Assembly: GCA_029858565.1 (NCBI GenBank)
Contig: JAOUEV010000012.1
Span: 278-64,277 of the forward strand
DNA from: Nitrospirota bacterium
GTDB lineage: Bacteria > Nitrospirota > UBA9217
Length of the DNA stretch: 64,000 nt
Reading direction: 5' to 3'
Part shown: piece after piece, positions 3,163 to 18,093 of the stretch
Layout of the letters: every line of letters begins with the position of its first letter
How positions within the stretch are numbered: position 1 is the stretch's first letter
Program-made: the position numbers and the translations under genes
The notes under the pieces: model-generated
Seen by the model: the letters and a program-made list of their open reading frames with translations, nothing else
Told to the model about the DNA's origin: nothing
The model's database searches: none

Positions 3163-4094
3163 TCCAGAACCTCGAAGCTCTGCTGCTTCTGCACCGCATC
3201 GAGCAGAAGGTTCAGCCCCAGCGTATCGCTCGAAATGTGACCGGCTATGACCACCCGGAGGTGATGCTTCTCCGCCTCCTTGCGGTGGTCATCGGGGAGA
3301 TGCATGCAGACCATGGTGCCGATCCCTGCCTGTGACATCCGCTCGATCGTGTCCTTGGACCCCGAGGTTCCGCCGGTCATTTTCACGAATATCTTCCCGC
3401 ACCGATGCTCCTCGGCGCCGACAAGGATGCGCGGGCCGGCATTCTGACGCTCAGCCTCCTGGTACTCGGGGATGGCCCGGAGCAGGGCCAGCAGGTCGCG
3501 CAGTTTCTCGGGCTGCGCGCGATCGAACAGCGACTGGATAAAACCCTGGACCATGTTGTCCGCCGGCGAATGCAGACAGGCAAAGGGGAGATCAAGGAGC
3601 CGCGCGGCATCCACCGGCCTCCGGTGGTTCGCCGGAAGCACGCTTCGCTCCACTTCCCGCATCCGGTCGGCGATCTGCGATTCTGCGACCGTGATCGGCA
3701 CGCCGAACCGGTGCAGGATGTCGGCCTGCATCTTCATGACCTCGTAGAAGTTCGCGTAGGCCCTTCCTTCGGGATGATGGGCCAGCACCAGGTCGATGCC
3801 TGCGCCCTTCTCGTTCAGGCGGTCGGCAAGCAGCAGTTCCGGGGTCTCGATATCGATGCCTGCGAGGATCTTGCGTAACGGCCGGTCAGGATCTCCATGA
3901 AGGATCCTGCTGTCGGCGTAGGGGTTGGTCAGTTTGTCGCGGTCAAAGGCCCCGGCATCGCCGGGCTGTGTCTTTTCCTGAGCCTTCCGCGCCTCCGTCA
4001 GGTCGCGCTCGGCCGCGGCCCGGCCTCGCGGATCCGCGTCCATGCCCGCGCGGAGGGCGTGCTCGAAGAACTCTCCAATGGTCAATGCGTTCAC
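3129..4094 (-). CDS. Nif3-like dinuclear metal center protein (GTP cyclohydrolase 1 type 2 / YqfO family)
   Basis: 321-aa ORF. Length and conserved His/Asp-rich segments (LVLAHHPEGRAY, VVIAGHISSD) match the NIF3 family. Confidence 0.7.
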   Translation of the reverse strand: MNALTIGEFFEHALRAGMDADPRGRAAAERDLTEARKAQEKTQPGDAGAFDRDKLTNPYADSRILHGDPDRPLRKILAGIDIETPELLLADRLNEKGAGIDLVLAHHPEGRAYANFYEVMKMQADILHRFGVPITVAESQIADRMREVERSVLPANHRRPVDAARLLDLPFACLHSPADNMVQGFIQSLFDRAQPEKLRDLLALLRAIPEYQEAERQNAGPRILVGAEEHRCGKIFVKMTGGTSGSKDTIERMSQAGIGTMVCMHLPDDHRKEAEKHHLRVVIAGHISSDTLGLNLLLDAVQKQQSFEVLECSGFTRVKRG

Positions 4095-4666: not shown

Positions 4667-4867
4667 CTAGCCGTTCCTGAACATACGCGCGGTCTTTGCC
4701 GCCTTCTTGCGCGCGGCGATCGCCTTCTTCTTCTTCTTCACGCTCGGCTTTTCGTAATGCTCGCGCTTCTTCACCTCGGAAAGGATGCCTTCCTTTTCGA
4801 TGCTCTTCTTGAACCTCCGAAGCGCTGCTTCAAAGGGCTCGTTGTCGCGTAATCTGATGCTCGGCAC
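4667..4867 (-). CDS. rpsU: 30S ribosomal protein S21
   Basis: [48 protein letters not shown]... matches S21. GTG start at 4867 is preceded by GGAGG 6-10 nt upstream on the minus strand. The longer track ORF (to 4945) has no RBS. Confidence 0.85.
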
Positions 4868-5075: not shown

Positions 5076-6281
5076 TCAGCTCCGATAGGCTGCGTTGATC
5101 TTCACATACTCGTAGGAGAGATCGCAGGTCCAGACGGTTGCCTCGCCTTTTCCCTTGCGAAGATCGATCAGGATATGGACCTCCCGCTGCTTGAGCGAAG
5201 CGGTCGCCTCCTTGTCCGCTGCCTTGCCAAGGCCCACTCCCCGCTCAACGATCTTTGCTTTTCCGAAAGTGATGTCGGTCCGCGTCTCTTCCATATCAAC
5301 ACCGCAGCTCCCGAGCACGGCCATGATCCGGCCCCAGTTGGCATCCTCGCCAAAAAGCGCTGTTTTGACGAGGCTGGACGTCGCAACAGCTGTTGCAGCG
5401 CGCTTTGCCTCAGCGGGATTCTTGGCACCCTGCACCGTGATCTGCACCAGCTTCGTGGCGCCCTCGCCGTCCTTCACCACCTGCAGGGCAAGGGATTTCG
5501 TCACCGCGTCCAGGCAGGCCTGGAGTTTTTTCATGTCCTTGCTGCCCGGCGCCGGCTTCTTGTTCTCTGCTGCGCCGTTCGCCATGACCAGCACCATATC
5601 GTTGGTGCTCATGTCGCCGTCCACGGTGATCGCGTTGAACGAGCGCTCCGTGGCCGACTGCAGCATCTTCTTGAGCACCGGCGCCGCGACGGCCGCGTCG
5701 GTCACGATGAAGCACAGCATGGTCGCCATACCCGGGTGGATCATGCCTGAGCCCTTGGCGATACCGGCCATGGTGATGGTCTTCCCGTCGATCTGCTCCT
5801 GAACGGCGACTGTCTTGACAAAGAGGTCCGTGGTCATGATCGCTTCCGCGGCCTGGCTCCAGCCCGCCGGCGCAAGAAGCCCCCCGGCTGTGGCGATCCC
5901 GGTGCGGACCTTCTGCATGGGAAGCAGCTCGCCGATCACTCCGGTCGAGGCAACATACACCATATCGGGTTTCACACCCAGTTCCTGGGCAGCGATCTCG
6001 GCTGTCTCTTTGGCGTCAGCGAGCCCCTGCTTGCCGGTACACGCGTTGGCGCACCCGCTGTTCACCACGATCACCTGGCCTTTGCCGGATTTCGATTTTG
6101 CCATGCCGAGCACTATGGACGCTGCCTTGACCTTGTTCTGCGTGAACACGCCGGCAACGGCCGCCTCGCGATCGGAGGCGATGATCGCGAGGTCCTTTTT
6201 ATCGGTCTTCTTGATCCCGCAGTGGATGCCCCAGGTCTTGTAACCGGGGACGGTGAAGTTCTTTGCATCGAGATTTTTCAT
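5076..6281 (-). CDS. argJ: Bifunctional glutamate N-acetyltransferase / amino-acid acetyltransferase ArgJ
   Basis: 401-aa ORF with the self-cleavage ATML motif (GMATMLCFIVTDA) and overall ArgJ pattern. Confidence 0.9.
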   Translation of the reverse strand: MKNLDAKNFTVPGYKTWGIHCGIKKTDKKDLAIIASDREAAVAGVFTQNKVKAASIVLGMAKSKSGKGQVIVVNSGCANACTGKQGLADAKETAEIAAQELGVKPDMVYVASTGVIGELLPMQKVRTGIATAGGLLAPAGWSQAAEAIMTTDLFVKTVAVQEQIDGKTITMAGIAKGSGMIHPGMATMLCFIVTDAAVAAPVLKKMLQSATERSFNAITVDGDMSTNDMVLVMANGAAENKKPAPGSKDMKKLQACLDAVTKSLALQVVKDGEGATKLVQITVQGAKNPAEAKRAATAVATSSLVKTALFGEDANWGRIMAVLGSCGVDMEETRTDITFGKAKIVERGVGLGKAADKEATASLKQREVHILIDLRKGKGEATVWTCDLSYEYVKINAAYRS

Positions 6282-6361: not shown

Positions 6362-7408
6362 TTACGGGAACAGCGCGGCAAACCGAAGGCCCGCTGTCTC
6401 CTCAAATCCCATCATGATGTTCATGTTCTGGACCGCCTGGCCTGACGCGCCCTTCACCAGGTTGTCGATGGCCGTCACAACAACGGCGCGGCCGGTCCGC
6501 GGATCGGCGTACACGCCGATGTCGCAGAAATTGGAACCCCGCACGTTCCGCACGTTCGGGAACTGCCCCAGGGGCAGCACGCGCACAAACGGCTCGTTCC
6601 TGTAGAACTCGTCGTAGATCCTGTGGAGCGCGCCGGTGTCCGCTTTCCCGGTCATGTTCGCATAGATCGTCGTCAGGATGCCGCGGTTCATCGGTACAAG
6701 ATGCGGCGTGAAATTGAGCGTCACCTGTTCGCCCGCGAGTATTGACAGCTCCTGCTCGATCTCGGGCGTGTGCCGGTGGGTGCCGATCTTGTACGCCATG
6801 AACGCTTCATTCGCCTCGGGATAATGGTAGGGAAGCGCGGGGCTTCTGCCTGCGCCGGACACTCCGGACTTGGAGTCGACCACGATCGTCCGATGGTCGA
6901 CCGCCTTGTTCCGGAGCAGCGGGGACAGTCCGAGGATAGCGCTCGTGGGATAGCACCCGGGATTGGCGATCAGCGATGCCTTTTTGATATCGTTCCGGTG
7001 CAGTTCGGGAAGACCATAGACAGCTGATTTGAGCAGATCGGGGTACTGATGGCAGTGCTCGTACCATTTCTCATAGACCGCGGGATCGGACAGCCGGTAG
7101 TCGGCGGAAAGGTCAACGACCTTGACCCCCAGCTTGTGGAATTGATAGCCTGCTTCCTGCGCGGTCACGTGAGGAAGCGCGAGAAAAGCGACGTCCGCTT
7201 TCTTCGCGATCCGTTCAGGATCAAGGGACTCGCAGACCAGGTCCGTGAGCTTGGCAAGATGGGGAAAGATGTCGGTGATCGGCTTGCCCGCGGACCGTTC
7301 CGACGTGATCGCGGTGACCTCGGCCGCCGGGTGATGAAGAAGGATGCGGAAGAGCTCCCCGCCCGTGTATCCGCTGGAGCCGACGATGGCTATTCTGAGT
7401 TTTTTCAT
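6362..7408 (-). CDS. argC: N-acetyl-gamma-glutamyl-phosphate reductase
   Basis: [24 protein letters not shown]-terminal Rossmann motif, catalytic Cys in ANPGCYPTS, 348 aa. Confidence 0.9.
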
Positions 7409-7584
7409 CTCTGATAGTATACCTGCAATTATCCGCTGCAGCCCGTCGAGAACACAAAAAAAGGGAAGGCATCATCACCTTCCCTTGTCGATCAGCAAGT
7501 ACTGCAGCATGTCTCCAATGTGGTTGTCTGCCCTTTCCGGTGTCGGCATTGGAGGCAGCCGCGCACCCAGCATGCAGTCCGCGA

Positions 7585-7983
7585 TTAACGCTTCGAGAAC
7601 TGGAACCGGGCCCGGGCGCCCTTCTGGCCGTACTTCTTGCGTTCCTTGGAACGGGGGTCGCGCGTCAGCAGGCCTTCCTTCCGCAGCTTGCCCTTTGCCT
7701 CGGTATCAACGGCAAGAAGCGCCTTGGAGATCCCGTGCCGGAGCGCGCCGGCCTGGCCTGTCTCACCGCCGCCCAGCACGGTCGCGAGCACATCGAACTT
7801 GTCCGTCGTACCCGTCACTTCAAAGGGCTGGCGAATGATCATCTTCAGAACATCGCGGCCGAAATACTGGTCCACGGGACGCTCATTGATCGTGATCTTG
7901 CCGCTTCCGGGCATCATCCACACCCGGGCGATCGAATTCTTCCGTTTTCCGGTCGCGTAGAACCGGGATACCGCTGCTGACAT
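7585..7983 (-). CDS. rpsI: 30S ribosomal protein S9
   Basis: [13 protein letters not shown]...[19 protein letters not shown]...[17 protein letters not shown]. Confidence 0.95.
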
Positions 7984-9027: not shown

Positions 9028-9816
9028 ATGTCCACGATCACGATGAAGGAGTTGCTGGAAGCGGGGGTTCACTTCGGCCATCAGGCCAAGCGCTGGAATC
9101 CCAAGATGAAGAAGTACATTTTTGGCGAGCGGAACGGGATCTATATCATCGATCTTCAGAAGACGCTCAAGCTTTTCAAGGAAGCCTACGATTTCGTCCG
9201 GGATTCCGCGGCCCAGGGCAAGGACATCCTGTTCATCGGGACCAAGAAGCAGGCCCAGGACGCGATCACCGAGGAAGCCAAGCGCTGCGGCATGTACTTT
9301 GTGTCGAGCCGCTGGCTTGGCGGCATGCTGACCAACTACGCAACAGTCAAGAAGAGCATCGACCGCCTCAAGAAGATCGAAAAAATGAAGGAAGACGGCA
9401 CCTACGACAAGCTCACCAAGAAAGAGGTCGCGGGCCTCGAAAAAGAGCGCACCAAGCTCGAAAAAATCCTGTGCGGGATCAAGACCATGCCCGCCCTTCC
9501 GTCGGTCATTTTCGTGATCGATCCCCGGAACGAGGCGATCGCGGTGCATGAGGCGAACAAGCTCGGCATTCCCGTGGTCGCGGTGGTGGACACGAACTGC
9601 GATCCCGACAACATCGACTACGTTATTCCCGGCAATGACGACGCCATCCGCGCCATCCGCCTCATGGCTTCCAAGGTCGCCGATGCGGTGATCGAGGGAC
9701 GCCAGGCGATCGCCAAGGAATCGGGCGAGGCAATGGAAGCGGCCAAGGCCGCGGGCGCGACCGTGCCTTCGGAAGTCCCGGCTGAAGCAGAGGGTGACAC
9801 GGCGGAAGAGGCGTAA
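9028..9816 (+). CDS. rpsB: 30S ribosomal protein S2
   Basis: [52 protein letters not shown] at 9014-9021. Confidence 0.95.
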
Positions 9817-13508: not shown

Positions 13509-14140
13509 TGACTTCGCTCCGATCTTTAGCAGCCATCCTCCTGCTCCTTGGCACTTTCTCCGGCTGCTCCCTGCCGAAGATCGTATTCCTCCATGACCCA
13601 TTATCAGCGGACGAGCACACGCAGCTCGGCATTGCCTATGATTCCCAGCAAAAGCACGACCTTGCGCTGGACCAGTTCCGGCTGGCGATCAAGAAGGATA
13701 AGAAACACCTGGCCGCATGGAAGCTTCTGGCAGACCTTTCCTACCGCCTGAACGACCTCGACAGTGCTGTCTCGGCCCTTGAAAAGGCTATAGAACTGGA
13801 GCCGGCCTCAGGCGACAGCCGGAACAACCTGGCATGGGTGTATCTTAAGCAGGGAACGAACCTCAAGCAGGCCGCGACGATACTTGAGGAAGCGCTGATG
13901 CTTCACCCGGCGAACAGGCCTTATTACCTCGACACCCTGGGCATGGTCCTGCTGAAGCTCGGGAAAACGAAGGAGGCGGTCTCGGCGCTTGAGGAGTCGG
14001 CTCGCACCCTGCCCGCTGACAAACCAGAGGTACTGGCGGAAGCCTACGACCACCTTGCCCAGGCATACGACGCTGCGGGTAATAAAGATGGTCACGAGCG
14101 CTCGCTGATCAAGGCGCAGGTTCTTCGCAACAAAAAGTAA
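13505..14140 (+). CDS. TPR-repeat lipoprotein
   Basis: Signal/lipobox FSGC; 3-4 TPR-like repeats (LGIAYDSQQKHDLALDQFRLAIKKD, AWKLLADLSYRLNDLDSAVSALEKAIELEP, ...). ATGATGA overlap with the peptidase gene stop suggests translational coupling. Confidence 0.7.
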   Translation: MMTSLRSLAAILLLLGTFSGCSLPKIVFLHDPLSADEHTQLGIAYDSQQKHDLALDQFRLAIKKDKKHLAAWKLLADLSYRLNDLDSAVSALEKAIELEPASGDSRNNLAWVYLKQGTNLKQAATILEEALMLHPANRPYYLDTLGMVLLKLGKTKEAVSALEESARTLPADKPEVLAEAYDHLAQAYDAAGNKDGHERSLIKAQVLRNKK

Positions 14141-14219
14141 GGGGCTTTCGTATTTTAGTTGAAATTGCTTGATCCCCATGCACAAAAACAATCAATCCTG
14201 GAACAGTAACCCTTTTTTT

Positions 14220-14385
14220 CGCGCAAAGCCGCAAAGGCGCAAAGAAAGGCAATCCTGATACCGGTAACTATCTTAAACCGGCTGAAATATGCGAACATTT
14301 TGAAGTCTTCACATTTCCCACGGTATCTTTTCTTGAGCCTTTGACATTGTTTTCTTTGCGCGCTTTGCGGCTTTGCGCGAGACAG
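14220..14385. repeat. Small inverted-repeat element A (MITE/REP-like): triple 8-mer GCGCAAAG arrays in inverted orientation flanking a ~105-bp AT-richer core
   Basis: Left arm gcgcaaagccgcaaaggcgcaaag (14221-14244) matches the reverse complement of right arm ctttgcgcgctttgcggctttgcgc (14354-14378) with a 16-bp perfect core. Ends in gcgagacag. Sits in the atpB upstream intergenic region. Confidence 0.6.
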
Positions 14386-14576
14386 AAGTTAGCCATTGTT
14401 TTCAACTTTACTGCGAATGAACAAAAAGTAACCTCCTCCCAGCCCTCTTCATTAGCAAAAATATATATATTCATTAGGAAATTTAATGGTCCCTTTCCGG
14501 GTTTAGGCTTGACAAAAAAGTGGGGTTACTGTAGATTTTTTTACCTAGACCGTGTAACCGATAAAGGAGTGCCCCT

Positions 14577-15251
14577 ATGAAAGAAGGACCGGTAGTCCTC
14601 CATAACTCGCTTGTTGCCGACCATGTGTCCTACACCTGGTTCACCATGGCGATCCTGATCGGCCTGGCGCTGATCGCGCGGGCTTCTCTCAAGCGGGATG
14701 CGCCCACGGGCGTTCAGAACGTGTTCGAGGTGATCTTTGACGGCCTGAACGGCTATGTGGACGAGATCATGGGACCCCATGGTCACCAGTATTTCACCCT
14801 GGTCGGCACGCTCTTTCTGTTCATCCTTACGGCGAACATCATCGGTCTCATCCCCGGATTCAACTCGCCCACGGCGAACATCAACACCACCGCGGCTCTG
14901 GCGATCACGGTCTTTGCAGCGACCCATATCATCGGCGTTGCTAAGCACGGTCTCTCCTACTTCAAGCATTTCATGGGGCCTGTTTCCTGGCTCGCGCCGC
15001 TCATGATCCCCATCGAGGTCATCAGCCATCTGGCCCGGCCGGTATCCCTCTCGTTCCGTCTTTTCGGCAATATGGTGGCAAAACATGAACTCATGCTCGT
15101 GCTTGCGGCCCTGGCCCCGTTCCTGGCTCCGGTGCCGATCCTCGGCCTGGGCCTGTTCGTGGCCTTTGTGCAGGCCGGCGTGTTCACGCTCTTGACCATG
15201 CTCTACCTCGCGGGCTCCATCGAGGAAGCCCACGGCAGCGACCATCACTAA
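14577..15251 (+). CDS. atpB: F0F1 ATP synthase subunit a
   Basis: 224 aa, 5-6 TM; conserved Arg region [20 protein letters not shown]. Confidence 0.9.
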
Positions 15252-15262
15252 TTCGCAATTAC

Positions 15263-15300
15263 GGTAGGGGCAGGTTTAAAACCTGCCCCTACAAATTTTT
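15263..15300 (+). other. Perfect 14-bp palindrome hairpin between atpB and atpE followed by a short T-run
   Basis: gtaggggcaggttt/aaacctgcccctac then aaatttttaaacc. Possibly an attenuator or processing site for atpB:atpE stoichiometry. Confidence 0.4.
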
Positions 15301-15406
15301 AAACCTCGGAGGATGTCGTTCCCGCAGACGCGGGAGTCCCCGGGAGGTAGCGCCCCGGCATGATTCCGGACAAGATTTGCACTTTTGGAGAAAGGAGGAC
15401 AACCTC

Positions 15407-15727
15407 ATGAAAAAGCTTGCTCTTCTCGTTATGTCCCTCAGCATGGTCCTCGTTGCCGCAGCTGCATTCGCGAGCGAGGGCGCCGCAGCTCCTGCTGCAG
15501 CCGCTGCGTCCACCGGCATTTCCGCCGCGGTCGCCGCGCTCTTCGCCATCGCCATCGCGGCGTTCGGCGGCAGCATCGGCATGGGCCTCAGCATCAGCAA
15601 GGCCGTTGAAGGCATCGCCCGCAACCCCGAGGCGTCCGGCAAGATCATGACCACCATGATCATCGGTCTGGCGCTGATCGAGTCGCTGGCCATCTACACC
15701 CTGGTCATCATCTTCATCAAGGCCTAA
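15407..15727 (+). CDS. atpE: F0F1 ATP synthase subunit c with N-terminal signal-like extension
   Basis: RBS AAAGGAGG then ATG at 15407. C-terminal ~75 aa is a canonical c subunit ([45 protein letters not shown]). The N-terminal ~30 aa [25 protein letters not shown] is hydrophobic and signal-peptide-like. Confidence 0.9.
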
Positions 15728-15750
15728 GGGTAGATATCGCAGTTCAGAAA

Positions 15751-15779
15751 GGGGACGGTGAAAACCGTCCCCTTTTTTT
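15751..15779 (+). terminator. Rho-independent terminator after atpE
   Basis: ggggacgg-tgaaaa-ccgtcccc hairpin followed by TTTTTTT. Confidence 0.8.
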
Positions 15780-15798
15780 GTGCCTCATCCAGCCCCTC

Positions 15799-15827
15799 TT
15801 GACTTGTGTCACGTGACGCGTTACAAT
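15799..15827 (+). promoter_or_regulatory. Sigma70-like promoter (TTGACT-17-TACAAT) with a 10-bp palindrome gtcacgtgac in the spacer (likely HigA operator)
   Basis: TTGACT at 15799-15804, 17-nt spacer, TACAAT at 15822-15827. The higB GTG start lies 7 nt downstream, which would make the transcript leaderless. Confidence 0.6.
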
Positions 15828-15833
15828 TCCCCA

Positions 15834-16115
15834 GTGATCAGATCGTTCAAGGACAGACATACCGAGCAGCTCTACATGACCGGAAAATCCAAACGGCTGC
15901 CCGGCGACATCCTGCAACGCGCAAGACGTCGGCTTGAATATATCGACCTTGCAACCTGTCTTGACGACTTGAAAGTTCCGCCCAGCAATCGACTGCATGC
16001 GCTTACCCGTAATCGAACCGGACAACATTCGATTGCGGTGAATGATCAATGGAGAATTTGCTTTCGGTTCAAAAAGGGCGATGCATTCGACGTAGAGATC
16101 ACTGATTACCATTGA
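15834..16115 (+). CDS. higB: Type II toxin HigB (RelE/ParE superfamily)
   Basis: VIRSFKDRHTEQLY...NDQWRICFRFKKGDAFDVEITDYH closely follows the Rts1 HigB pattern (MIKSFKHKGLKLLF...ANWRITFQFINGDAYILNYEDYH). GTG start chosen by homology. Confidence 0.8.
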   Translation: MIRSFKDRHTEQLYMTGKSKRLPGDILQRARRRLEYIDLATCLDDLKVPPSNRLHALTRNRTGQHSIAVNDQWRICFRFKKGDAFDVEITDYH

Positions 16116-16131
16116 GCGGAGAGAGAAAACC

Positions 16132-16437
16132 ATGAAGACACGGGAAAGAGCAATACGTCCGGTCCATCCAGGAGAGATGTTGCGGGAAGATTTTCTGCCT
16201 GATTACAACATGTCCGCATCATCTTTTGCCGCCGCGCTGGGCGTATCCCGCCAGACGGCCAACGAGCTTCTGAACGAGCGTCGGTCGGTCACGCCCGTGA
16301 TGGCCCTGAGCCTGTCCCGCTTATTCGGCAATACGCCTCTGTTCTGGCTGAACGCCCAGGCGGCCGTTGACCTATGGGAAGCCCAACGACGCAGCAAGGC
16401 CAAGCTGGCCCGCATACGACCGCTGACCGCTGCGTGA
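16132..16437 (+). CDS. higA: Antitoxin HigA (HTH XRE family)
   Basis: IRPVHPGEMLREDFLPDYNMSASSFAAALGVSRQTANELLNERRSVTPVMALSLSRLFGNTPLFWLNAQAAVDLWEA; toxin-upstream gene order typical of higBA. Confidence 0.85.
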   Translation: MKTRERAIRPVHPGEMLREDFLPDYNMSASSFAAALGVSRQTANELLNERRSVTPVMALSLSRLFGNTPLFWLNAQAAVDLWEAQRRSKAKLARIRPLTAA

Positions 16438-16442
16438 ACCAA

Positions 16443-16490
16443 GCCATAGCCATTTACACCCTGGTCATCATCTTATCAACGCAAGCCTGA
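16443..16490 (+). repeat. Decayed direct-repeat copy of the atpE 3' end, including a stop codon
   Basis: gccatagccatttacaccctggtcatcatcttatcaacgcaagcctga versus atpE 15689-15727 gccatctacaccctggtcatcatcttcatcaaggcctaa; 19 bp are identical (acaccctggtcatcatctt). Together they flank the higBA cassette. Confidence 0.75.
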
Positions 16491-16650
16491 TGAGCAAAGT
16501 GTCTTCGTGCCTGTTTTGTGAGAAATGGTTTTCTTTACGTTTACTTGTGTCTAGGGCAATGACTAATCTTTTTTCCCTTTTTCTCCCCATTCACCTGCGG
16601 TATAATAGCCCCTCGATATCATTGCTGAACAAAAGGAGTTGTTTCGAATT

Positions 16651-18093
16651 ATGAGTAATGTTCGCGTTCGTTTTGCCCCCTCCCCGACGGGCGCCCTGCA
16701 TATCGGCGGAGTCCGCACCGCCCTGTTCAACTGGCTCTTCGCCCGTCACCACAAGGGAACCTTCATCCTGCGCATCGAAGATACGGACCAGCAGCGGTCA
16801 ACCGACGAATCCATCCGTATCATCATCGACGGCATGAAATGGCTCGGCATGGACTGGGAAGAGGGACCGACCGTGCAGGCCGACGGAACGGTCAAGGGAT
16901 TTCGCCAGACCGAGCGCATGGACATCTACCGCGAGTATGCGGACCGGCTGCTGAAGGAAGGCAAAGCCTACTACTGCTACTGTTCGCCCGAGGAACTCGA
17001 CAGCCGCAGAAAAGCAGCCATGGCCGCTGGCAAACCGCCCAAGTACGACCGCACCTGCTTCGGCCGCAAGGAGCCCGTTTCCGGCAGGACCCCGGTGCTT
17101 CGTTTCCATTCGATCGACGAAGGACAGACCATTGTGCGCGACACGATCCGCGGCGCGGTCACTTTCGAGAACCAGCAGCTCGACGACCTGATCATCATGC
17201 GGTCCGACGGTTTTCCGACCTATAACTTCGCTGTTGTCGTGGACGACGTGACCATGAAGATCTCCCATGTGATCCGCGGTGACGACCACCTGAACAACAC
17301 GCCGCGCCAGATCCAGATCTACCGCGCTCTCGGGTTCGAACCGCCCGAGTTCGCCCATCTGCCCATGATCCTGGGTTCCGACAAGACCAAGCTGTCCAAG
17401 CGCCACGGCGCGACCGCAGTGACCGAATACAAGGACCTTGGTTACCTGCCCGAGGCCTTGATGAACTATCTCGCGCGGCTCGGCTGGTCCCATGGCGATC
17501 AGGAGGTCTTCTCCATTGCCGAACTGATCGAGAAGTTCACCCTCGACAACATCGGCAAAGCGCCCGCAGTGTTCAATCCGGAGAAGCTCGTCTGGCTGAA
17601 CCACCACTACATCCAGCAGTCTGACCCTGAGCGGCTTTCCGGCCTGGTGCTCGATCTCCTGAAAAAGGACGGCGTGGTTCAGGAAGGCAAGGAGCCCGAC
17701 GCAACATGGATGAACAAGCTCGTGAAGATCCTGACCGAACGGAGCCACACGCTGGTTGAGATGAAGACCTCGTCCCTGCCATTTCTCCAGGACAGCATCA
17801 CCATGGACGAAAAGGCCAGGGCCAAGCATCTGACGCCTGACGTGAAGCCGCTGCTTGAGGAACTTGCCGGGAAGCTCAAGTCGCTCGAACCTTGTTCCCA
17901 CGACGCAATCGAGAAGCTATTCAACGATATCGTGACGCCCAAGGGTGTGAAACTCGGCAAGCTGGCCCAACCGGTGCGCGTGGCCCTGACCGGCGGGACT
18001 GTCAGTCCGGGCATCTTCGACGTCATCGAGGTCATGGGGAAAGACCGGACCGTTGACCGCATCAACGCGGCGATCAAGATGATCAGCACATAG
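16651..18093 (+). CDS. gltX: Glutamate--tRNA ligase
   Basis: MSNVRVRFAPSPTGALHIGGVRTALFNWLFARHHKG (HIGH motif), KLSKRHG (KMSKS); 480 aa. AGGAG RBS; ATG at 16651 (the track start 16639 is TTG). A TATAAT -10 at 16603. Confidence 0.95.
   Translation: MSNVRVRFAPSPTGALHIGGVRTALFNWLFARHHKGTFILRIEDTDQQRSTDESIRIIIDGMKWLGMDWEEGPTVQADGTVKGFRQTERMDIYREYADRLLKEGKAYYCYCSPEELDSRRKAAMAAGKPPKYDRTCFGRKEPVSGRTPVLRFHSIDEGQTIVRDTIRGAVTFENQQLDDLIIMRSDGFPTYNFAVVVDDVTMKISHVIRGDDHLNNTPRQIQIYRALGFEPPEFAHLPMILGSDKTKLSKRHGATAVTEYKDLGYLPEALMNYLARLGWSHGDQEVFSIAELIEKFTLDNIGKAPAVFNPEKLVWLNHHYIQQSDPERLSGLVLDLLKKDGVVQEGKEPDATWMNKLVKILTERSHTLVEMKTSSLPFLQDSITMDEKARAKHLTPDVKPLLEELAGKLKSLEPCSHDAIEKLFNDIVTPKGVKLGKLAQPVRVALTGGTVSPGIFDVIEVMGKDRTVDRINAAIKMIST

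Follow-up and report, generated by a model that had tools for sequence, protein, structure and literature searches.

We have analysed a 64,000-nucleotide stretch of the Nitrospirota contig JAOUEV010000012.1 (hereafter the window), in which a higB-higA toxin-antitoxin (TA) pair lies between atpE, encoding the F0 subunit c, and gltX, encoding glutamyl-tRNA synthetase, and is followed by a second, eroded copy of the atpE 3′ end. This second gene end proved to be real, and it has a longer and better preserved counterpart in a related lineage. The reading that we favour, and which we consider to have about an even chance of being correct, is that higBA entered together with an arm made of the atpE end and its terminator by a single homologous crossover, or by an equivalent one-ended event, without a dedicated integrase. 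The arm would thereby have been duplicated, and its right copy would later have eroded in the window.

The second atpE 3′ end of the window

The atpE gene (15407-15727, on the + strand like all features of the locus; PF00137) is intact, and the C-terminal two thirds of its product are near-invariant among relatives. Its last ~14 codons, the stop codon and the start of the following spacer (15687-15740) recur behind higA, at 16447-16500, the cores of the two copies (15689-15714 and 16449-16474) being equal at 25 of 26 bases. An earlier reading made from the sequence alone (the sequence-only reading) had reported an identical core of 19 bp, ACACCCTGGTCATCATCTT, which was confirmed as part of this longer match. 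The 19-mer has two exact occurrences in the 64 kb of the window and did not turn up in 100 dinucleotide shuffles, either exactly or with up to two mismatches. The pair is the sole short-range direct repeat of such quality within the window. A gap of 11 nt separates higA from the second atpE end, and gltX begins ~150 nt beyond the latter.

The extent of the second copy was assessed with an nhmmer profile made from relatives only and covering the atpE end, the spacer and the terminator. This profile matched the true gene end (15607-15785) with an E-value of 9e-57 and the stretch 16447-16500 with an E-value of 1.9e-7 (profile positions 82-138). The similarity was thus significant both in this search and against the shuffled background. 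The decayed gene end, previously delimited to 48 bp, is therefore real, but it spans 54 bp, comprising the last ~14 atpE codons with their stop and ~12 nt of the spacer behind it. Because the profile match continues through the post-stop spacer, copy 2 is to be seen as a copy of the locus, that is, of more than its coding sequence. It is non-coding, with a 1-nt deletion and more indels past the core.

Beyond position 16500, the pairwise alignment of the two copies was not significant, its score being reached in 238 of 500 shuffles. A 12-mer match (TTGACTTGTGTC / TTTACTTGTGTC) and a GTGCCT match were considered as extensions of the repeat past the stop, and neither was significant. Folding revealed no remaining hairpin after copy 2, the stretch leading to the gltX promoter block (16501-16565) giving a z-score of +0.8, and the window sequence after copy 2 had no significant similarity to the post-terminator sequence of any relative. 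An identical structure was present in two other, independent assemblies (ENA ERZ27296335 and Logan SRR7132115); hence, it does not result from misassembly.

Related loci and the better preserved repeat

We have retrieved 164 AtpB-anchored loci from genomes and metagenomes. Among these, a second atpE end was found in the window lineage and in the lineage of locus L165 only, in each case accompanied by higBA. The ~25 relatives lacking higBA have one atpE end each and no second atpE gene, which ties the duplicated gene end to the insertion. The search for an empty site in relatives, proposed by the sequence-only reading, was also successful, with such sites in L001, L088, L089 and L180/L181. L001 (labelled "uncultured Nitrospiraceae") is a clean example, consisting of atpE, the terminator, ~370 bp and gltX.

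Self-repeats seen in L001, L014, L036 and other loci were unrelated intergenic repeats. In L001, intergenic sequence from upstream of gltX recurs downstream of this gene (7307-7448 versus 9133-9403; 98 bp at 84% and 36 bp at 94%). This gltX-flanking family contains short CATTCGTGCCATTCGT tandem units, which were also found upstream of gltX in L089. L014, a distant deltaproteobacterial metagenome-assembled genome, has a repeat of ~112-128 nt (5886-5997 versus 7691-7818; 80% with gaps) that begins directly after atpE and flanks a cardiolipin-synthase-like gene; it excludes the atpE end and hence represents a different phenomenon.

L165 (ENA ERZ27247852) encodes the closest HigA homologue (90% identity), and the same locus was present in L166 (JGI 3300027900) and L167 (Logan SRR5272222). 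Its order is atpB, atpE, terminator, the same junction spacer and promoter as in the window, higB, higA, a second HigA-family gene and an extensive duplicate of the atpE 3′ region, beyond which lie AT-rich genes, an XRE regulator and gltX. The arrangement of terminator, spacer, promoter and higBA aligned without interruption between the window and L165, from window position 15318 to 16438. The direct repeat of L165 (4455-4636 versus 5767-5947) has 182 bp and is ~94% identical, extending from atpE codon 64 through the stop, the spacer, the terminator hairpin and the T-run. In the right copy, the part that was once coding has a frameshift and six substitutions, and the hairpin is intact (-32.5 kcal/mol). 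Both copies have the lineage-specific spacer variants GTATCAGCAGAG, absent in all relatives. As these variants are shared and the right copy is merely decayed, the arm looks self-like and not like a foreign attP.

The right edge of the L165 repeat (TTTTTTTGTC), at the T-run plus 3 nt, is the point where the relatives diverge and alternative cargos begin. The sequence after the right copy resembled the post-terminator sequence of L091, L178 and L175, which lack higBA (0 of 300 shuffles), and no significant similarity to that sequence was found after the left copy. The right copy thus passes into native downstream sequence, which indicated that the insertion consists of one repeat plus the cargo, 1311 bp in all, with 1129 bp of cargo lying between the repeats. 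The suggestion that the window holds what is left of a decayed larger element was thus borne out in part: L165 is larger and fresher, its 182-bp repeat includes the terminator and it has a second higA, but an element of the integrase type is unsupported.

The second HigA-family gene of L165 (5438-5740; TIGR02607, 88 bits) has no recognisable toxin and is preceded by a short unrelated open reading frame (ORF; 5307-5437). This orphan higA probably remains from another TA module that the insert once contained. L187 (ENA ERZ27227585), a strain belonging to the lineage of L165, was found to carry a ~170-bp internal deletion (positions 192-200 relative to L165 4819-4989), by which the 3′ part of higB is gone and higA and the second higA are kept, that is, the toxin was lost and the antitoxins were retained.

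In the window, atpBE is followed by an intrinsic terminator (15746-15782; stem 15748-15775 and then a T-run), predicted to pair perfectly over 12 bp around a 4-nt loop (-30.1 kcal/mol, z = -5.6). The same atpE end is followed ~25 nt on by the orthologous hairpin GAGGGGACGGTGAAAACCGTCCCCTC and a T-run in L001, L087, L088, L089, L091 and L093, and the orthologous hairpin was also found in L175-184. Judged by this conservation in all relatives, the predicted atpE terminator of the window is native and cannot simply be counted as cargo of an element.

All genomes became unalignable within ~3 nt past the T-run and alignable again ~85 nt upstream of gltX. The right border of this variable region is a conserved block (TTTTTTCCCTTTTT...GCGGTATAAT; window 16566-16650), which aligned to L001, L093, L165 and L180. 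Within one species (22 contigs with identical AtpE; 10 places examined), three alternative sequences directly follow the T-run, namely a nucleotidyltransferase-type cargo, another cargo or an empty site, and none of them has an extra atpE end. The slot delimited by the atpE terminator and the gltX promoter is a hypervariable hotspot, which marks this junction as a place of gene exchange in a Nitrospirota clade.

Homologous exchange could also be seen across the locus. L089 (1-1385) and L165 (2677-4061) are conspecific; the 1385 bp that lead up to the atpB stop are 99.8% identical in the two. Beyond this stop the spacer is unalignable, atpE is ~85% identical, with the divergence mainly in its 5′ part, and gltX is ~93% identical. 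On the evidence of these alignments, the mosaic boundary at the atpB stop shows the homologous replacement of a segment. An imperfect palindrome, CATTGCGAGC(A/G)A(A/C)GC(G/A)AAGCAATCTC, was noticed just past the atpE terminator, close to the left end of several alternative cargos (L175 ~3900-3935, L178 ~3925-3960, L091 ~1290-1320 and L165 ~5985-6010).

The higBA cassette itself occurs outside the atpE locus as well. The block from promoter to stop (window 15798-16437) has 75-77% nucleotide identity in the unrelated contexts L168, L169, L172, L185 and L186, where the homology runs from exactly the -35 hexamer to the higA stop. The promoter block is conserved from the -35 onward also in L165 and in L174, the latter representing a third lineage with higBA behind the atpE terminator. 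The junction spacer between terminator and cassette (15783-15798) is homologous in these three atpE-linked lineages, which have ...GCCC(C/T)TCTTGAC / TCGCCTTGAC in common upstream of the -35, and it is different in the unrelated contexts. No flanking repeats were found around four unrelated-context cassettes (L168, L169 and L172 among them) or around the atpE-linked cassette of L174. As the cassettes in unrelated contexts lack flanking repeats, the duplication appears to be specific to the atpE locus and not the general mode of higBA insertion. The closest HigA homologues on short contigs (P0002-P0005, P0008, P0010, P0013 and P0017) were mostly in other contexts, with no intermediate of the window copy among them.

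Origin of the duplicated gene end

A circle that carried an atpE fragment and integrated by a single crossover, one of two mechanisms offered by the sequence-only reading, fitted the comparative data best. The donor segment would have comprised the 3′ part of atpE, the spacer, the terminator, the promoter, higB, higA and possibly more. Its integration by one crossover, be it Campbell-type, through a circularised fragment, or by a one-ended homologous plus an illegitimate event, would duplicate exactly the shared homology arm, leaving atpE intact on the left and a redundant copy beyond the cargo. In the window, this redundant copy would then have lost its left ~85 bp, whatever followed higA, and the terminator hairpin, with 54 bp left. 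Since the homology between donor and recipient defines the repeat, its right edge would be expected at the end of interspecies alignability, where it was found in L165. The constant company of higBA at the second atpE end and the homologous exchange visible in the L089/L165 mosaic also supported a single crossover.

No recombinase ORF was detected in the window cargo, in the L165 cargo or downstream of atpE in the ~25 related loci, and the core had 0 matches in the viral and proviral contigs scanned. This agrees with the earlier statement that the cargo of the window has no integrase, and the immediate surroundings of the repeats were likewise free of recombinase ORFs in both the window and L165. 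Type II TA modules stabilise chromosomal islands, and HigBA addiction would counter-select a repeat-by-repeat deletion of the insert. We infer the recombination mechanism, the circularisation and delivery of the piece, the descent of the window copy from a longer repeat, the deletions that shortened it and the stabilisation by HigBA.

Similar structures arise as Campbell-type products and by homology-facilitated illegitimate recombination (HFIR). There too, the arm is directly duplicated around the insert, no recombinase of the element is needed, the repeat stops where homology stops and the insert can be lost by recombination between the repeats. Most of what is known of such processes comes from suicide vectors used in the laboratory and from experiments on transformation (HFIR: PMC3240628). 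By contrast, the structure described here is natural and fixed in two lineages, its arm is a housekeeping gene end with its terminator and its cargo is a TA module; circularisation and delivery are steps that would have to have taken place in nature.

Several points weigh against a single crossover. Among the loci retrieved there was neither a circle nor an excision junction of the element, nor a site emptied precisely of it; the empty site of L089 continues into other downstream DNA and hence does not represent a precise excision. For the window, the DNA behind copy 2 is not demonstrably native, and that a terminator was lost there is only presumed. L174 and its longer relative L173 have higBA without a second atpE end within 1.6 kb downstream; hence, either the cassette can occupy the locus with no repeat, or a repeat once present can disappear. 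The near-perfect 26-nt core of the window, standing beside a strongly decayed flank, is not explained by uniform decay, and the reading would require natural competence or another DNA-delivery route in these uncultured Nitrospirota.

A further difficulty comes from the ages. The L165 repeat is only ~6% diverged and thus far younger than higBA, the synonymous divergence (dS) between the window and L165 being 0.90 for higB and 0.81 for higA (1.5 for atpB and 1.18 for gltX). All these values are near saturation, so dS is not decisive between a vertical and a horizontal history of higBA; the pair would be old at the locus or would have been exchanged long ago. The repeats of the window and of L165 may have arisen separately, or gene conversion may have reset them. 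An independent origin of the two repeats would favour a recurrent, module-like behaviour.

Such a behaviour would be accounted for if the atpE 3′ end, the terminator and higBA formed a self-perpetuating mobile module free of integrase, a proposal that we regard as quite improbable. Recombination between the repeats may release a circle with one repeat, and the near-invariant gene end plus terminator may let this circle re-enter any related genome by a RecA-mediated single crossover, regenerating the repeats. The TA pair may penalise the loss of the module, and the differently aged repeats may record repeated rounds of hitch-hiking on the homology arm.

The other mechanism of the sequence-only reading, an integrative element that targets and restores a gene 3′ end, found no support. 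It would here take the form of a decayed integrase-dependent island, or of an element resembling those called CIMEs, with its attB in the atpE 3′ end and carrying a replacement gene end; the integrase and most of the cargo would have been lost, leaving attL, higBA and attR. CIMEs are elements that retain attL and attR and have lost their integration genes (PMC5704250). The succession of intact gene end, cargo and displaced gene end is the classic footprint of such an origin, and the continuity of the L165 right copy with native downstream DNA, the patchy distribution among relatives and the hotspot character of the locus all speak for it. In addition, the near-identical 26-nt core of the window, with its diverged flanks, resembles an att core. 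As in CIMEs and decayed 3′-end islands, there are direct repeats, one of them inside a conserved gene 3′ end, integration and transfer genes are absent and the site accumulates cargos (PMC5704250).

However, neither a recombinase nor a fragment of one was found in the window cargo, the L165 island or the ~25 related loci, the core was absent from the viral and proviral contigs, and no cognate integrase-bearing element was found at the site among the loci retrieved. The other cargos of the hotspot have no atpE repeats. The L165 repeat is long, self-derived and uniform, at ~94% over 182 bp, instead of being a short att-like core with diverged, foreign arms, and it reaches through the terminator to end where interspecies homology ends. 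Taken together, we consider this origin unlikely. When e14 and phage 21 integrate into icd, this essential gene receives a new 3′ end from the element, so that it stays intact, and the displaced end persists as a pseudo-fragment at the other border; an integrase is encoded, the replacement end is diverged and the crossover core is short. The window likewise has an intact atpE with a displaced end, but there is no integrase and both copies are of the same lineage.

A low probability is also given to a local rearrangement without mobility. According to this explanation, higBA was already at the locus, and the atpE end and terminator were copied downstream of it by a template switch during replication, by unequal exchange between sister chromatids or through merodiploidy set off by transformation, or else the second end is the relic of a tandem atpE. 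The old appearance of higBA at the locus (dS of 0.8-0.9 between the window and L165), the terminator-promoter junction common to three lineages, the comparatively young L165 repeat and the presence of higBA without a repeat in L174/L173 would all fit. Repeat-bordered duplications induced by transformation are documented (PMC3784515). Against this, a plain tandem duplication of arm and cargo would double the cargo, which is present as a single copy, and the native post-terminator sequence of higBA-less relatives behind the L165 repeat points to the insertion of arm plus cargo in one piece. Moreover, a second atpE gene is present in none of the ~25 relatives, and the right copy of L165 begins mid-gene, at codon 64.

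Insertion of a transposon or insertion sequence was rejected, as there is no transposase ORF and there are no inverted repeats at the cassette ends, the repeat has 54-182 bp and, in other contexts, the cassette is not flanked by repeats. An origin of the similarity by chance or by faulty assembly, which the shortness of the window copy (54 bp) and the non-significant pairwise similarity outside ~35 bp could have suggested, was refuted by the shuffles, the independent profile, the two further assemblies of the window structure and the 182-bp version in three assemblies of another lineage, and its probability is negligible.

If the single crossover is the correct reading, a small addiction module could be installed beside an essential gene by host recombination, with a conserved gene end serving as homology arm. 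Its scar would be a displaced gene end with no integrase nearby, which annotators could use to spot recombination-driven gains in uncultured bacteria. What is known of HigBA systems and of integration mechanisms in general is left unchanged, the locus being a modest example of a recombination-driven gain at a hotspot.

The higBA operon and neighbouring features

The gene calls, the terminator, the promoter and the palindrome GTCACGTGAC on which the sequence-only reading had been built were all found in place. The toxin gene higB (15834-16115; 93 aa, GTG start) precedes higA (16132-16437; 101 aa, antitoxin and helix-turn-helix repressor) by 16 nt on the same strand, an inverted gene order, and the pair has a single upstream promoter (15799-15827). 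The latter reads TTGACT-17-TACAAT (-35 at 15799-15804, -10 at 15822-15827) and scored 10/12 in the promoter scan. The operator-like palindrome (15808-15817) lies between the two hexamers and was conserved across eight independent contexts.

HigB matched PF05015 with 62.9 bits (cutoff 27) over profile positions 2-91 of 91, and HigA matched the TIGR02607 equivalog with 99.6 bits (cutoff 47.7), as well as PF01381 (HTH_3). Among solved structures, HigB matched GraT (6f8s_B, E 9.5e-24) and the Proteus vulgaris/Rts1 HigB (4mct_B, E 3.5e-12), and HigA matched 3cec (E 8.8e-21) and GraA (6f8s_A, E 1.8e-19). The designation "Rts1-type" is hence adequate at the family level, but the closest solved relative of the pair is GraT/GraA (6f8s), the Proteus vulgaris/Rts1 HigB-HigA (4mct/4mcx) being more distant. 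HigA had 7854 homologues at E<=1e-10, and by these matches the predicted pair belongs, as an ordinary member, to a very large family.

Like the type II systems GraTA of P. putida (6f8s) and HigBA of Proteus vulgaris/Rts1 (4mct), the window pair is toxin-first and consists of a HigB-like toxin of the RelE fold and a helix-turn-helix antitoxin, with family scores far over the cutoffs. Its palindrome overlaps the promoter, as in the autoregulated hig/gra operons, and is a predicted operator. In HigBA systems, a toxin that stops growth by ribosome-dependent mRNA cleavage is neutralised by its antitoxin. The differences are that the predicted window pair is chromosomal and comes from an uncultured Nitrospirota bacterium, and that its toxin is nearer to GraT than to the Rts1 HigB.

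Another difference lies in the start of higB. In all seven contexts read at this point, a GTG stands 5-6 nt past the -10 hexamer without a Shine-Dalgarno sequence (window 15822-15836; L165 4694-4707; L168 ~4699-4713; L169 ~2800-2814; L174; L185; L186). This spacing suggests a leaderless transcript, so that higB is probably translated from a GUG at the very start of the messenger. The higB gene was overlooked by gene callers in the window contigs, L165, L169 and L171, and elsewhere it was extended into the promoter, giving calls of 99-120 aa.

The core gene on the left of the locus is atpB (14577-15251; F0 subunit a; PF00119, 191 bits), and that on the right is gltX (16651-18093), taken from the ORF list and recognised as Pfam tRNA-synt_1c on an identical contig. 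An Rfam search of 14100-16800 returned nothing but sub-threshold terminator-like matches. A strong hairpin with 13 pairs (15264-15292) lies directly 3′ of atpB and is followed, in the atpB-atpE spacer (15318-15372), by a conserved block of the form GTTCCCGC..GCGGGA..GGGAGGTAGC..CCCGGCA. The block has no Rfam match and is kept in L001, L002, L089 and L165 despite unalignable surroundings. Hairpin and block may constitute a candidate structured leader or processing element for atpE. In AtpE itself, residues 1-40 (15407-15530) form a signal-peptide-like, Ala-rich N-terminal extension of ~40 residues, which is highly variable between lineages, the rest of the protein being almost invariant.

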